A DNA stretch of 64,000 bases from Patescibacteria group bacterium (GTDB lineage Bacteria > Patescibacteriota > Patescibacteriia > SCPX01). The stretch spans positions 6,876 to 70,875 of the forward strand of contig SCPX01000056.1 of the NCBI GenBank assembly GCA_004298615.1, written 5' to 3'. The translations under genes and the position numbers were made by a program. The notes under the pieces are model-generated. The model worked only from the letters and a program-made list of their open reading frames with translations, made no database searches and was not told the DNA's origin. Shown here piece after piece: positions 7,787 through 46,025 of the stretch (within the stretch, counting starts at the first letter, position 1; the number at the start of each line of letters is the position of its first letter).

Positions 7787-7825
7787 TCAAGTAAGCGCTC
7801 AAAGGTTGGTTGAGCGCTTACTTGA
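7787..7825 (+). promoter_or_regulatory. 15-17-bp perfect inverted repeat (caagtaagcgctcaa-N7-ttgagcgcttacttg) immediately 5' of, and abutting, the adhesin start codon
   Basis: The repeat is seen in sequence with no T-run after it. It would sequester the region just upstream of ATG 7827. Confidence 0.4.
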
Positions 7826-28184: not shown

Positions 28185-28955
28185 ATGATTCCGTGGTTTC
28201 AAATAGAACAAATCCATTTCGGGCCCCTCACGATTCAAGTGTGGGGCCTCTTGGTATCTCTGGGTTTTATGCTCGGAGCGTTTGTGCTTTGGAAAGAAGC
28301 GAGGCGCAAGGGAGTGGATGCCAATATCATTTTGGATCTTTTTATTTTAATTTTAGCGGGCGCAATTATCGGCGGGCGGCTTTTTTATGTTGCCGAGCAT
28401 TACAAAGAGTATATCGGCGATCTTTTGCGGATTTTTCTAATTTCCGAAGGGGGGATGTCTTTCTTTGGAGGATTTTTAGCTGCTTTGGCGGCCGGAGTGG
28501 TTTTTGTTCATAGAAAAAAGATGCCGGTGTGGAAAATCACGAACATAATCGCGCCAGCTTTGGCCGCCGGCTACGCAATCGGCCGATTCGGCTGTCTTTT
28601 CATTCACGATCATTTGGGGAAAATCACCAATTTCTTTTTGGGTATAAAGACGCCAGACGGCACGATCCGCCACGAGCCGATAATTTACGAAATTTTTTTC
28701 AATGGCCTGACGCTTTTCTTTGTTCTCTGGTTTTTGCGAAAGAGGATCAAAAAAGACGGAATGCTTTCGATTATTTTCCTTGTCTGGTTTTTGTCCGTGC
28801 GGTTCGTCACTGACTTTTTCCGCTCCGCCGATTTGCCCGATTCGGACATAAGATATTTCGGCTTAACTCTGGCGCAGATAACTATAATAATATTTGCAGT
28901 ATTTGTTTTGCTGATTTCTAAATATTTTATAACGAAGAAACAAAACGCACATTAA
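28185..28955 (+). CDS. lgt: Prolipoprotein diacylglyceryl transferase
   Basis: Lgt motifs are present ('GGRLFYV', 'GGMSFFGGFLAA', 'GRFGCLFIHDHLG'). Confidence 0.85.
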   Translation: MIPWFQIEQIHFGPLTIQVWGLLVSLGFMLGAFVLWKEARRKGVDANIILDLFILILAGAIIGGRLFYVAEHYKEYIGDLLRIFLISEGGMSFFGGFLAALAAGVVFVHRKKMPVWKITNIIAPALAAGYAIGRFGCLFIHDHLGKITNFFLGIKTPDGTIRHEPIIYEIFFNGLTLFFVLWFLRKRIKKDGMLSIIFLVWFLSVRFVTDFFRSADLPDSDIRYFGLTLAQITIIIFAVFVLLISKYFITKKQNAH

Positions 28956-28980
28956 GATTTAATTTACAGTAATTAAACAT

Positions 28981-29128
28981 CGTCGCAATTCAAAATATGT
29001 CGTGCATCAAACGATCGTCACATATACGACATTATTTCTTAAGATTAAAAAATAATACGATATGGATTCATCGAGTAAAAGCAGTTTATGATATGTCGTG
29101 CATCAAACGATCGTCGCATATACGACAA
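28981..29128. repeat. Left ~150-bp direct repeat unit containing two 36-bp palindromes (28997-29032 and 29093-29128) separated by a conserved 'atacgatatggattcatcgagtaaaagcagtttatg' core
   Basis: Seen in sequence. The unit is about 85% identical to unit 31246-31392. The palindrome is ATGTCGTgcatcaaaCGATCGtcacatatACGACAT. Confidence 0.65.
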
Positions 29129-29229
29129 AATTATATTATGCTATAATAAATTAAGGCGAAATAAAAGCGAGAAAAGAAGAGGCGACGGGTGTTTGAATTA
29201 ATAAATTAATAACGCAATTATCAATAATT

Positions 29230-29814
29230 ATGAAAGGCGAAAATAGATTGAAAATATTGGAGTTTCTTGAAAATTCCGGCCAGGCATTAGAGGAATTGTT
29301 TTTTATTTTTACAGTGCCCTACGGCACTTCTTTTCACGGGGCGGAATATCGTTTGAGAAAATTTCGAGAGGAGAGAGAGAATTTAAAAACCCTCAAAAAA
29401 GATAAACGGCGGTTTGATGACTTGATTTATCGTTTGCGCAAAGATGTGTTGATTGATGATATTAAGAGTAAAAAAGGGTCTTTTTTGCGCCTAACGCAAA
29501 GGGGAATAGAAATTTTAAACAAACTGCGCGACAAAAAAGACAAAGCAATGCCTGACGCAAAATATCAAAGCCAAAATGACGATAATTTAAAGATAATTAT
29601 TTTTGATATTCCCGAAGGGGAGAAAAGAAAGCGCGTTTGGCTGCGTTCCGCCCTTAAAAACTTAAATTTTACAATGCTTCAGAAAAGCGTTTGGGCGGGG
29701 AAAAGCAAGCTGCCCCACGAGTTCGCGATAGATTTGAATAAACTGAAAATAATTTCTTATGTAGAAATTTTTGCTATCAGCAAGACCGGAAGCTTGAAGC
29801 AATTAAAATTTTAA
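29230..29814 (+). CDS. PaaX-like transcriptional regulator (wHTH N-terminus plus a PaaX_C/Cas2-fold-like C-terminus)
   Basis: 'KIIIFDIPEGEKRKRVWLRSALKNLNFTMLQKSVWAG' resembles the PaaX C-terminal block. The N-terminal 'LKILEFLENSGQ' is wHTH-like. The family call is by motif only. Confidence 0.45.
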   Translation: MKGENRLKILEFLENSGQALEELFFIFTVPYGTSFHGAEYRLRKFREERENLKTLKKDKRRFDDLIYRLRKDVLIDDIKSKKGSFLRLTQRGIEILNKLRDKKDKAMPDAKYQSQNDDNLKIIIFDIPEGEKRKRVWLRSALKNLNFTMLQKSVWAGKSKLPHEFAIDLNKLKIISYVEIFAISKTGSLKQLKF

Positions 29815-29841
29815 AAAAACAAATCTACCAAGATTCGAACG

Positions 29842-29877
29842 ATGTCGTACATCAGACGATCGTCGCATATACGACAT
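29842..29877. repeat. Third copy of the 36-bp palindrome (atgtcgtacatcagacgatcgtcgcatatacgacat), 30 bp upstream of gene 29908
   Basis: Seen in sequence. Confidence 0.6.
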
Positions 29878-29907
29878 ATCTGAACAGCGTTGTAATCCGA
29901 TGGTATA

Positions 29908-30543
29908 ATGCTAATGAAAAAAAATATGGACAATGAGAATAATCATAATCCCGAGCCTACCCAAGAGATGCCATTGGTTGATATTGGAAAAGATAATCAT
30001 GATCAAACAGATCAGCAAAAAAGAGACGAGCGAATCCTGCAAATTGATCAGGAGTTGGCCGAGTTTTCAGTTAAGGCGCAAACCGAAGACGAGATAAACG
30101 CCGTTCAAATGGAAAGAGATCAAGAATATCAAAACAAAATCCAAGAACTGGAGACGGGCCTGAGCCAGCCGCTTTCCGAAGAAACAAAAGATAAAATTCA
30201 TCAGAATATGGTGGATAGCGTAATCGATCGGGCACGAAGAGTGAATAATAAGTTTGATAATCTGCAGATATTAAGAAATACGGAAAATCTTATTACTAAC
30301 ATGGAATCGCTTGGTGCAAAAATTGACAATAATTCAAGGATTAGGTTGGTAGAGATATTATCTTCGCCTCAGATATTGCATGTTAATAGGCGCGAACTAG
30401 TAAAACTATTTGGAGTTGATGAGAAAGATGACGCATTAGTCAGAAAACTTTATCAACCATTCAATGAAAAGTACGGGAAATTATTAAAAGAATGGTTGAT
30501 AAAAGAAAATAAATTTTTTTCTCCAAATCAGAAATTAAATTAA
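29908..30543 (+). CDS. Hypothetical acidic coiled-coil protein (211 aa)
   Basis: The ORF has coding-like composition. No TM helix and no recognised motif. Confidence 0.45.
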   Translation: MLMKKNMDNENNHNPEPTQEMPLVDIGKDNHDQTDQQKRDERILQIDQELAEFSVKAQTEDEINAVQMERDQEYQNKIQELETGLSQPLSEETKDKIHQNMVDSVIDRARRVNNKFDNLQILRNTENLITNMESLGAKIDNNSRIRLVEILSSPQILHVNRRELVKLFGVDEKDDALVRKLYQPFNEKYGKLLKEWLIKENKFFSPNQKLN

Positions 30544-30584
30544 CCGGAAATCAAGAAGTTCAAATCAATGGCGAAACGATAGAT

Positions 30585-31226
30585 ATGGCGGAACTTAATG
30601 ATTCTAAGATTTCTGAACTAGGAATAAAAAAAATTAAACGAATTATAGATGGAATCATTAATGACAATGAAAGTACTGCCGGACAAGGTATGTTCTGGAA
30701 TGTTTTGGTGCCAAAAGAAATACCTTTTGTTTTAAAGACTGAGCGCAAGCTTTATGATGAAAGTCAGGAAAAATACAGAAGAAAATCACTATTACAATAC
30801 CCGATTATTAGAGATAGTATAGGAAAAGAATTTTTACCTAAACAAGCTGTTTTGCTGGCGCACGATTCAGAACGATTTTATGTTTTGCAAGAAAAAATGC
30901 CATTGCAAAAAATGACAAGTATTAGAAATAAAAATATTGATTCAGTTATTGCTGGTGATTACGGACAGGAAATTGTAAACGCTTTGAGCGAAGAGAAAAA
31001 TAAAGAAAAATTGAGGGAATTTATTTCCGGAGTTGAGCGTCTCTATAAAGATCATAAACTAATAATTGATACGGTTGGGGATAATTTATTTTTTAATGTT
31101 TCCGAAGGCGGTGATTTGAATATAAAGCTGGTGGATTACGGCGCCTTCAAACAGCGTGGGGATGTCCCAAATAGTGACATAAAAGAAGTGCTAGTGTTTT
31201 TAGAAAAATTGACGAATTTATTATAG
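30585..31226 (+). CDS. Small atypical protein-kinase-like protein (RIO/Bud32/Kdo-kinase-like size, no activation segment)
   Basis: A Gly-loop-like 'STAGQGMFWNVLV' is followed by 'VLK' (beta-3 Lys). 'LIIDTVGDNLFF' resembles a catalytic loop (D...N), and 'IKLVDYGAF' is DFG-like. This is an inference from motifs only. Confidence 0.4.
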   Translation: MAELNDSKISELGIKKIKRIIDGIINDNESTAGQGMFWNVLVPKEIPFVLKTERKLYDESQEKYRRKSLLQYPIIRDSIGKEFLPKQAVLLAHDSERFYVLQEKMPLQKMTSIRNKNIDSVIAGDYGQEIVNALSEEKNKEKLREFISGVERLYKDHKLIIDTVGDNLFFNVSEGGDLNIKLVDYGAFKQRGDVPNSDIKEVLVFLEKLTNLL

Positions 31227-31245
31227 GCGAACTTTTTTTTTGAAT

Positions 31246-31392
31246 TACTGCAATTCAAAATATGTCGTAGATCTACCAATCGTCACATATACGACATTAT
31301 TATCTTGAGATTAAAAAAATACGATATGGATTCATCGGGTAAAAGCAGTTTATGGTAAGTCATACATCAGCCGATCGTCATATATACGACAT
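31246..31392. repeat. Right ~150-bp direct repeat unit, with palindrome copies at 31262-31297 and a degenerate one at 31357-31392
   Basis: Seen in sequence. Together with 28981-29128 it brackets the three-gene cassette. Confidence 0.65.
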
Positions 31393-31540
31393 TTTTACCG
31401 ACTTATTTCATGACATAACTTTTATAATATTTGGTCGCACATTGTGCGATCGCTTCATCTGCGACTAGAATTATTTTGCCCCCATTTGTTTTTTTATAAT
31501 TTAATAGTATAATGAAAAAATATTTGTTTGATTTGAAATC

Positions 31541-32476
31541 ATGCCGATTGTTGAAGTAAAAAATTTATCCAAATATTATCCCAAGCCCGATAATCCGAAA
31601 GAAAAATTCGCGGCCGTGGATGATGTTTCATTTGAAATAAAAGAAGGGGAGACTTTTGGCATTCTGGGGCCGAACGGCGCGGGCAAAACCACGACTTTGG
31701 AAATGCTTGAGGGATTGAAAGTTATTGAAAAAGGGGAAGCGCTTGTCTCTGGAATTTCCGTAAAAAACGATCCGATGAGAGTGAAACAGATAATCGGGGT
31801 CCAGCTCCAGGAAAGCCATTATTTTGATTTTTTAAAACTCAAAGAATTGCTTGATTTGTTCGGAGAATTTTATCATCGCAAAATTGACGGCCTGGAATTG
31901 CTTCGCGAAGTCCAGCTGGAAGATAAAAAAGCGGCTTATACCAGGCAATTATCCGGTGGACAAAAACAGCGCCTCTCCATCGCTTCGGCTCTGGTCAATG
32001 ATCCCAAAGTGCTTTTTTTGGACGAACCGACCACGGGCTTGGATCCGCAAGCCAGGCATAATTTGTGGGATTTGGTGAAAAAAATAAAAGCCAAGGGGAA
32101 AACAATCGTCTTGACCACGCATTATATGGAAGAGGCGCAAATCTTATGCGATCGCTTGGCGATTATGGATCATGGAAAAATAATCGCGCTGGACACGCCG
32201 GATAATCTTGTGAATAAATACGCCCCGATATCGCATATTATTATAAAAACGGATCAGCCGCTGCCAGACGAAGAATTGAAGAATATTCCGCATGTTCAAA
32301 GCATATCATCAGAAAACGATTTTTATGATTTTTGGGTAAGCAATCCGGAAGAGGTTTTACTGCGCTTGGTGGAATTTGCTAAATCGCGCGGCATTAAAAT
32401 TTTATCACTGCGCGTTGAGCGGTCTACTTTGGAAGATGTTTTTTTGAGCTTGACGGGAAGAGAATTAAGAGATTGA
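31541..32476 (+). CDS. ABC transporter ATP-binding protein (ABC-2/DrrA-like)
   Basis: It has a Walker A motif ('GPNGAGKTT'), the ABC signature ('LSGGQKQRLSIA') and a Walker B motif ('LFLDEPTTGLD'). Confidence 0.85.
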   Translation: MPIVEVKNLSKYYPKPDNPKEKFAAVDDVSFEIKEGETFGILGPNGAGKTTTLEMLEGLKVIEKGEALVSGISVKNDPMRVKQIIGVQLQESHYFDFLKLKELLDLFGEFYHRKIDGLELLREVQLEDKKAAYTRQLSGGQKQRLSIASALVNDPKVLFLDEPTTGLDPQARHNLWDLVKKIKAKGKTIVLTTHYMEEAQILCDRLAIMDHGKIIALDTPDNLVNKYAPISHIIIKTDQPLPDEELKNIPHVQSISSENDFYDFWVSNPEEVLLRLVEFAKSRGIKILSLRVERSTLEDVFLSLTGRELRD

Positions 32477-45982: not shown

Positions 45983-46025
45983 AAAGTCCAAACTTTTTTA
46001 GTTAAAAGTTTGGACTTTTTTTTAT
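45983..46025 (+). terminator. Rho-independent terminator (aaagtccaaactttt-ttagtt-aaaagtttggacttt followed by ttttta)
   Basis: Seen in sequence. Confidence 0.7.

Follow-up and report, generated by a model that had tools for sequence, protein, structure and literature searches.

Within a 64,000-nt stretch of contig SCPX01000056.1 from a Patescibacteria group bacterium (the whole of this stretch is called the window below), an open reading frame of 213 residues, ORF2, very probably encodes the C-terminal catalytic domain of a larger protein of about 433-439 residues. This protein has a minimal protein-kinase-like (PKL) fold and belongs to a rare family so far known only from the candidate phyla radiation (CPR), and its gene is interrupted in the window by a one-nucleotide deficit in a run of seven T residues (T7). 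The annotated ORF2, the sequence of which is that of 'hypothetical protein EPN15_03460 [Patescibacteria group bacterium]' at NCBI, and the ORF upstream of it are to be read as a single interrupted gene. A large share of bacterial diversity belongs to CPR/Patescibacteria, for most of whose proteins no function has been assigned; to our knowledge, phospho-signalling in these organisms is almost unexplored. New atypical kinase families are found regularly, and the one described here is a compact lineage of the kinase superfamily with a clear catalytic signature, a novel N-terminal region and no Pfam or NCBIfam model. Its ORF2 domain is another natural example of a kinase fold trimmed to end right after the DFG motif. 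The fold assignment is solid and the correction to the gene model is useful, and nothing yet indicates unusual chemistry.

The kinase-like domain

The domain and its kinase-like motifs are located as follows:

30585..31226, plus strand: ORF2 (213 aa), minimal protein-kinase-like catalytic domain, corresponding to NCBI EPN15_03460
30675..30710, plus strand: beta1-turn-beta2 (T31-V42), equivalent of the nucleotide loop, 'xQGxFWNV', from predicted secondary structure and conservation
30735..30737, plus strand: K51, the beta3 lysine (equivalent of the VAIK lysine), present in 45 of 45 sequences and paired with K42 of DAPK2 in a profile match
31068..31085, plus strand: catalytic loop D162-T-V-G-D-N167 (D-x4-N), with D162 in 45 of 45 and N167 in 44 of 45 sequences
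31134..31142, plus strand: D184-Y-G186, Mg-binding motif equivalent to DFG, with D184 in 45 of 45 and G186 in 42 of 45 sequences

A sequence-only reading of the window had picked out four strings in this 213-aa frame as kinase motifs: AGQGMFWNV, which occupies residues 32-40; VLK, which ends at K51; the catalytic-loop string LIIDTVGDNLFF, which contains D162 and N167; and IKLVDYGAF, which contains D184-Y-G186. All four are present, and their resemblance to kinase motifs is not coincidental, since K51, D162 and D184 are invariant throughout a family alignment of 45 domains that are 22-62% identical to ORF2. Q87 and Q102 are likewise invariant in this alignment, and conservation of at least 90% was observed for N39, V49, E103, N139, F146, L153, N167, I180, K181 and G186. 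The spacing of D162-x4-N167 and of D184-x-G186 is that of the kinase catalytic loop and DFG motif. Within the nucleotide loop, G35 is kept in 40 and Q34 in 34 of the 41 ungapped sequences, and N39 in 41 of all 45. Two of the exceptions at G186 are UGA codons read as W. Two family members, P0034 and P0042, carry W at conserved Gly positions ('DTWCF' for 'DYGCF', 'WDN' for 'GDN') and throughout their length, suggesting that proteins from lineages in which UGA encodes Gly (code 25) were translated with UGA as Trp.

Searches with ORF2 alone returned Pkinase_fungal from Pfam (E=0.073), without a match to PF00069 Pkinase, and MARK1 from the PDB (E=0.84), in both cases on the catalytic-loop/DFG stretch. 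As the single-sequence results against Pfam, NCBIfam and the PDB were marginal, a family profile was needed. Four relatives were recovered by a word-indexed search of 5.8 billion proteins, and when 1.84 billion cluster representatives were searched exhaustively with a profile, the family grew to 56 members, of which 28 scored E<1e-30. When the family profile was compared with PDB sequences, 47 of the 48 matches at E<=10 were protein kinases, led by the C-terminal domain of MSK1 (E=0.0029) and DAPK2 (E=0.004). The profile alignment pairs D162, N167 and D184 with the HRD-Asp, the loop-Asn and the DFG-Asp, respectively, and K51 with the beta3 Lys; for example, the catalytic loop of ORF2 aligns with 'RDLKPEN' of MSK1 and DAPK. 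Pfam Pkinase was matched at E<=1 by 3 of the 45 members (best E=9.6e-4), with a score that stays below the Pfam threshold (15.9 bits against a cutoff of 31.7, for P0007), and YrbL-PhoP_reg (PF10707) was matched weakly by 3 of the 45 (best E=0.006). No Pfam, NCBIfam, PADLOC or PHROGs model captures the family, and neither half of the window gene matched PHROGs or PADLOC, the latter compared as a source of models for anti-phage defence and toxin-antitoxin kinases. A JGI fragment of one relative carries the label 'serine/threonine protein kinase'.

An AlphaFold2 (AF2) model of the ORF2 domain, computed with the family alignment as input, reached a predicted local distance difference test (pLDDT) score of 96.6 and a predicted template-modelling (pTM) score of 0.91. 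Its elements run from beta1-beta2-beta3 through two helices, beta4-beta5 and several short helices to a long alphaE-like helix, the catalytic-loop strands, the DYG motif, one strand and a terminal helix, and together they form the bilobal fold that marks the PKL superfamily. A Foldseek comparison against the PKL fold had been proposed along with the sequence-only reading; in the PDB all top matches were kinases, at a probability of ~1.0. Matches to the ORF2 model in a viral structure library were likewise mostly annotated protein kinases. In the model the chain ends 27 residues past D184-Y-G186 (29 past D184, in agreement with the roughly 30 residues first estimated), within which it forms one strand and one helix. 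Profile, AF2 fold and fold search thus support the earlier proposal of a minimal kinase-like core that lacks an activation segment.

One gene in two reading frames

ORF2 had also been taken for a stand-alone protein of 213 residues. This was not borne out, because ORF2 is the C-terminal part of a two-part protein of ~433-439 aa whose gene is frameshifted. The features on which this correction turns are:

29908..30543, plus strand: ORF1 (211 aa), N-terminal half of the same gene, aligning with the N-terminal parts of intact homologues
30449..30503, plus strand: perfect 14-bp hairpin with a 27-nt loop, inside the coding sequence and separated by 10 nt from the T7 run downstream
30513..30584, plus strand: out-of-frame 'intergenic' stretch in the frame of ORF2, encoding IFFSKSEIKLTGNQEVQINGETID, with homology to L004 and P0003
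30514..30520, plus strand: T7 homopolymer, site of the necessary frame change, where an extra T (T8) joins ORF1 and ORF2

ORF1 consists of an acidic/coiled leader, which extends to ~30278, and a helical middle module. Homology in the frame of ORF2 does not begin at its ATG but runs past it, upstream to the stop at 30510-30512, through a stretch in which IFFSKSEIKLTGNQEVQINGETID matches MFLGADIKLAGGQEVQIDDETID of L004, an intact gene from a Saccharibacteria metagenome-assembled genome (MAG), and IFLGKKVELAGHQDAEVDGETID of the homologue P0003. Beyond this stop the homology shifts to the frame of ORF1, where it reads KYGKLLKEWLIKENKFF. With T8 in place of T7 at 30514-30520, the two frames are fused as a protein of 439 aa. 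P0003 (342 aa), the N-terminal extension of which matches ORF1 (29908..30543), shows an uninterrupted alignment with this conceptual fusion (E=3e-99), and the intact 436-aa protein of L004 is 57% identical to the fusion over 355 residues (E=2e-142). Intact genes of 445 aa were also found in a Moraniibacteriota MAG and in an uncultured-bacterium bin (L005 and L006); across the three CPR genomes, intact homologues span 436-449 aa. Full-length members of the family are mostly 320-450 aa long, with the kinase-like domain at the C-terminus. The model of the repaired 439-aa sequence is a single unit (pLDDT 90.5, pTM 0.84) in which the junction itself is ordered, with a helix at 175-207 followed by strands at 210-226 (pLDDT 91-96).

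Two candidate stand-alone homologues of ORF2 were rejected. P0004 runs off the end of its contig and coincides exactly with the final part of the L005 protein, and P0002 adjoins an IS3-type transposase ORF of different G+C content. On the contig of the latter (L003), positions 6-266 of the minus strand encode the IS3-type transposase OrfA (HTH_Tnp_1), which has a much higher G+C content and abuts the 5' end of P0002; this arrangement is an insertion-sequence insertion or a chimeric contig that truncates P0002.

The start of the gene also calls for revision. The best promoter-like site overlaps the ATG at 29908, and in a related genome (L041) the first codon of the orthologue corresponds to M7 (ATG 29926). 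Therefore, the true start is probably ATG 29926, preceded by little or no leader, and the repaired protein would then probably have 433 aa. Start-codon contexts show that Shine-Dalgarno sequences are rarely used in this genome, and such contexts therefore say nothing on separate translation of ORF2.

In L041 and a further related genome, L066, whose flanks share 88-92% nucleotide identity with the window, blastn breakpoints delimit a segment corresponding to 30279-31199 (the middle module and kinase domain, G+C 0.33) that has been replaced by 2,046 bp. The replacement in L041 (1433-3478, G+C 0.43) supplies an unrelated 135-residue tail on the same 123-residue leader, together giving a 258-aa ORF without a Pfam match, as well as a gene for a family 2 glycosyltransferase (GT2) of 485 aa. 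Downstream of the GT2 gene, the final eight codons of the kinase gene persist with their stop codon as a remnant that is identical at 38 of 39 nt. This lineage can therefore do without the kinase module, which varies within it. A profile of the leader, searched against 5.8 billion proteins, retrieved only three short fragments, so that a widespread polymorphic leader is not supported at the sensitivity of this search.

As it stands, the window locus either yields two polypeptides or is a pseudogene, or else its frameshift arose in assembly or is overcome by slippage. Protein conservation across 30513-30584 is ~60%, as compared to 57% for the rest of the protein, and both halves of the gene are free of further stops. 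Conservation thus does not drop in the out-of-frame stretch, and the interruption must therefore be very recent, an assembly error, or bypassed in expression. It is conceivable, although we would not call it probable, that a genuine one-nucleotide deletion in the T7 run has inactivated the ~439-aa gene and left ORF2 as an annotation remnant. The frame change is required exactly at the homopolymer, intact orthologues have no T-run at this site, and related genomes have lost the kinase part down to its last eight codons and can evidently dispense with it; yet a dead gene accords poorly with the conservation of the junction stretch and the stop-free halves, and ORF2 by itself gives a model of a complete domain and begins with an ATG of its own. 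Programmed recoding, in which the hairpin and the U-run would promote transcriptional or -1 ribosomal slippage to give both a 211-aa product and the full-length fusion, would account for the fact that a -1 shift on UUU UUU or a single inserted U yields exactly the conserved protein. The hairpin that ends 10 nt before T7 is moreover a very rare feature, as perfect hairpins of at least 13 bp number three in 64 kb against ~0.05 expected, and hairpin-stimulated slippage of RNA polymerase has been documented for directly adjacent hairpins or for runs of about 9 (PMC5009743). Here, by contrast, the run is only 7 long and the spacer is 10 nt, so programmed recoding is possible but unlikely. We regard it as distinctly improbable, as the hairpin at 30449-30503 is not present in intact orthologues, the fold z-score is only -2.2, and no downstream stimulator was found.

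The other two perfect hairpins of the window lie at 7787-7825 and 45983-46018, and the latter runs into a T8 tract in a terminator-like manner.

Predicted activity and relation to known kinases

For the two-part PKL protein, sequence and predicted fold suggest that an ATP-dependent phosphotransferase activity is most likely. In the predicted fold the N-lobe is five-stranded and carries the beta3 lysine K51 and the single glycine of the nucleotide loop (Q34-G35), with a hinge after the invariant Q102-E103 and a reduced C-lobe that holds D162-x4-N167, D184-Y-G186 and one more helix. ATP would bind in the cleft between them, held by K51, with Mg2+ coordinated by N167 and D184; D162 could then act as the catalytic base, and the gamma-phosphate would be transferred to a hydroxyl of the substrate. 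Alternatively, ATP hydrolysis might serve as a switch. The parts of the C-lobe that usually bind substrates and confer regulation are absent, so that choice of substrate and control probably come from the N-terminal helical module or from a partner, as they do in OspG, RIO and Bud32. In rough terms, a protein substrate is plausible while falling short of an even chance, a sugar or small molecule is somewhat unlikely, and an ATPase switch or other role is more unlikely still.

Several observations weigh against this assignment. Known kinases are matched in sequence at marginal E-values, of which the best is 0.003, and the assignment therefore leans on the predicted fold; TM-scores to solved kinases in the Foldseek comparison with the PDB are moderate, at 0.35-0.46. 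The nucleotide loop has a single Gly (xQGxFWN) and not GxGxxG, I-I-D replaces H-R-D with no His or Arg ahead of the catalytic Asp, and the catalytic-loop Lys (+2) is absent. Of the conserved Lys/Glu pair that a kinase would be expected to show, K51 occurs in all 45 sequences, but no invariant acidic residue was found in the helices at 59-79 that could be the alpha-C Glu for K51. Acidic residues near alpha-C are found at position 67 in 20, at position 77 in 23 and as E82 in 38 of the 45 members, position 67 being Lys in ORF2 of the window; E82 is thus the best candidate, as predicted from the alignment, for the acidic alpha-C partner of K51. The copy in this genome is interrupted and possibly inactive. 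Finally, gene neighbourhoods are not conserved among other family members, so that context names no substrate, and the proposed activity draws on modelling and motif conservation.

If the domain is a minimal PKL enzyme, it might instead act on a sugar, a glycan or a cell-envelope precursor, phosphorylating a carbohydrate or a lipid-linked intermediate, as do WaaP/KdkA, POMK and the aminoglycoside kinases. We consider this unlikely, if worth keeping in view. The activation loop and peptide-binding C-lobe are absent, as such a role would allow, and several loci are suggestive: one family gene (L001) has a Mur ligase, DegT, NUDIX and FemAB as neighbours, another (L007) has a NAD-dependent epimerase/RmlD-family gene and NUDIX, the kinase-like domain of P0034 is fused to a C-terminal GT2 glycosyltransferase (residues ~200-634), and a GT2 gene occupies the kinase segment in L041. 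This association is loose, however, such genes being common in CPR genomes, and a Rosetta-stone link between the GT2 of L041 and the one fused in P0034 was rejected, as the two share only generic N-terminal GT2 similarity. Moreover, the best profile matches are CAMK-type protein kinases and not APH, ChoK or Kdo kinases, and the 25 families most matched by the 45 members at E<=1 include neither APH nor a Kdo or choline-kinase family of Pfam. Still less likely, in our judgement, is a non-transferase ATPase switch or a pseudokinase scaffold with the N-terminal helical region as its effector part, in the manner of RIO and Bud32. The closest minimal folds do include Rio1/Rio2/RIOK3 and Bud32, the substrate-binding subdomains are missing, and the large helical region models together with the domain (pTM 0.84). 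On the other hand, D162 and both metal ligands are invariant, as is typical of active transferases (RIO keeps them too), and none of the loci inspected showed a ribosome-biogenesis or t6A (Kae1/TsaD) context.

Within the PKL superfamily, of which it is a member, the family joins no known kinase subfamily. The Hanks-type kinases (MSK1 C-terminal domain, DAPK, Rad53) give profile matches at E 0.003-0.05 that cover alphaE, the catalytic loop, beta7-beta8 and DFG, in which 'lDllgdNvff...LeIkivDyG' of the family is aligned with 'RDLKPENLLF...LEIKIIDFG'. Unlike these, the window domain lacks HRD, GxGxxG, the activation segment with APE, and alphaG-alphaI, and its alpha-C Glu is not conserved; an activation segment and subdomains VIII-XI are missing from the 27 residues that follow D184-Y-G186. 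OspG and NleH, from Shigella and enteropathogenic Escherichia coli (EPEC), share with ORF2 a kinase fold that stops after subdomain VII and retains the Lys, the Asp-x4-Asn and the DFG-like Asp. They are type III secretion system (T3SS) effectors of Gram-negative pathogens, whereas the window family is from the CPR and has its own helical N-terminal region of ~225 residues, and ORF2 shows neither sequence homology to them nor an association with T3SS secretion.

RIO (Rio1/Rio2/RIOK3) and Bud32/PRPK are likewise atypical PKL domains of small size, which lack both an activation loop and substrate-binding subdomains. The sequence-only reading had likened the topology of ORF2 to these and to Kdo-kinase-like proteins, which holds insofar as the Foldseek list for the ORF2 domain model includes PRPK and Rio. 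It does not extend to family membership, as the RIO1, Kae1-associated and Kdo Pfam families are absent from the 25 families most matched by the 45 members. The RIO loop H-G/A-D-L-S-E-x-N differs from I-I-D-x-x-G-D-N of the window, and ORF2 matched neither the RIO model (PF01163) nor its signature loops. The nucleotide loop (xQGxFWN) and the N-terminal domain differ from those of RIO and Bud32, and there is no ribosome-biogenesis or KEOPS context; similarly, neither the Bud32/Kae1-associated model with a KEOPS association nor the Kdo/WaaP model (PF06293) with a lipopolysaccharide-core context was found for ORF2. The enterobacterial YrbL-PhoP_reg domain is of similar size (~200 aa), but its matches are sub-threshold and limited to a minority of members, with none for ORF2 itself, and we know of no N-terminal helical region in the YrbL proteins of E. 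coli.

Family architecture and genomic setting

Members of the family are built from a variable acidic N-terminus, a coiled leader (consensus R..RI..I..EL..F), a conserved helical middle module (consensus L..LG....L.S......R.EL..LLG.D) and the PKL domain, in this order. The N-terminal modules have no Pfam or PDB relatives, a profile of the middle module having given only noise against both. A few rare members carry additional parts: P0018 has a C-terminal extension (residues ~440-623) with a HEIGH motif of the HExxH type, and P0039 has a long unrelated N-terminal extension (residues 1-390). EPN15_03460 is labelled Patescibacteria by NCBI, and matches in genomes come from Saccharibacteria, Moraniibacteriota and one uncultured-bacterium bin without a stated taxonomy. 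By sequence search the family appears rare and unannotated and is so far known from CPR/Patescibacteria alone, and no description of it was found in literature searches.

In the window, the gene lies in a low-G+C islet of ~28,800-~31,500 (G+C 0.32-0.38 as compared to 0.42-0.50 in the flanks), a composition suggesting horizontal acquisition. The islet holds the split kinase gene and a PaaX/Cas2-like gene. Upstream are genes for a Cu-ATPase, DsbD-like and DsbA-like proteins and Lgt, followed by the 194-aa PaaX_M/Cas2-like protein, and downstream are an ABC-2 transporter pair, ScpB and TIM. These neighbours are ordinary chromosomal genes. The sequence-only reading had placed ORF2 in a small accessory cassette, with a toxin, a signalling kinase or a small-molecule kinase as its possible roles; the islet and the replacement of the kinase part in related genomes lend some support to the cassette. 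We flag this strain-variable islet for its candidate regulator and operator, which are located as follows:

29230..29814, plus strand: 194-aa PaaX_M/Cas2-like protein, candidate regulator (Pfam PaaX_M 8e-12, Cas2 6.7e-5)
28988-29032, 29084-29128, 29833-29877, 31253-31297 and 31348-31392, all on the same strand: five copies of a near-palindromic element of ~45 nt
29881-29909: promoter-like -35/-10 pair of the kinase gene, TGAACA-17-TATAAT, with an extended -10 TG

The PaaX_M/Cas2-like protein also has a weak winged-helix match and weak matches to PADLOC Cas2 models, and neither a CRISPR array nor further cas genes were noticed near 29230-29814. In eight metagenome loci its gene is 90-96% identical and always flanked by the palindromic element. 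The core of this element is ATGTCGTnCATCAnACGATCGTCnCATATACGACAT, and its five copies in the window are all intergenic and all within the islet, against none expected by chance. Two copies precede the PaaX-like gene and two precede the ABC transporter, and copies 1+2 and 4+5 form tandem blocks of ~175 nt that repeat one another. Copy 3 (29833-29877) sits 3 nt upstream of the promoter-like pair of the kinase gene; the promoter and terminator scan as a whole was not above shuffled sequences. The element is dispersed over related metagenome contigs, where 58 loci carry ~40 full copies between them, often directly ahead of boxes that resemble -35/-10 sequences. An RNA structure for the element was considered and rejected, since its folding was not significant and one copy has lost an arm without compensation; therefore a DNA-level element is favoured. 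Rfam gave nothing credible within 28900-31600. The element is a candidate DNA operator of the PaaX-like protein, or possibly a repeat of the REP (repetitive extragenic palindromic) or MITE (miniature inverted-repeat transposable element) kind.

A more elaborate view, to which we attach very little weight, would make the locus a strain-variable cargo site, with a conserved leader of ~123 residues that receives exchangeable C-terminal modules, PaaX/Cas2-like control through a 36-nt palindromic operator and possibly gating by hairpin-assisted slippage. Were this true, the kinase would be an exchangeable effector of epibiotic bacteria, directed at their hosts or competitors.

In the Saccharibacteria contig with the intact 436-aa gene (L004), a 378-aa ORF at 3745-4881 matches nothing in PADLOC or PHROGs and is not found next to other family members. 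This ORF and the stop of the kinase-family gene share 4 nt (ATGA), an overlap which suggests that translation of the two is coupled.

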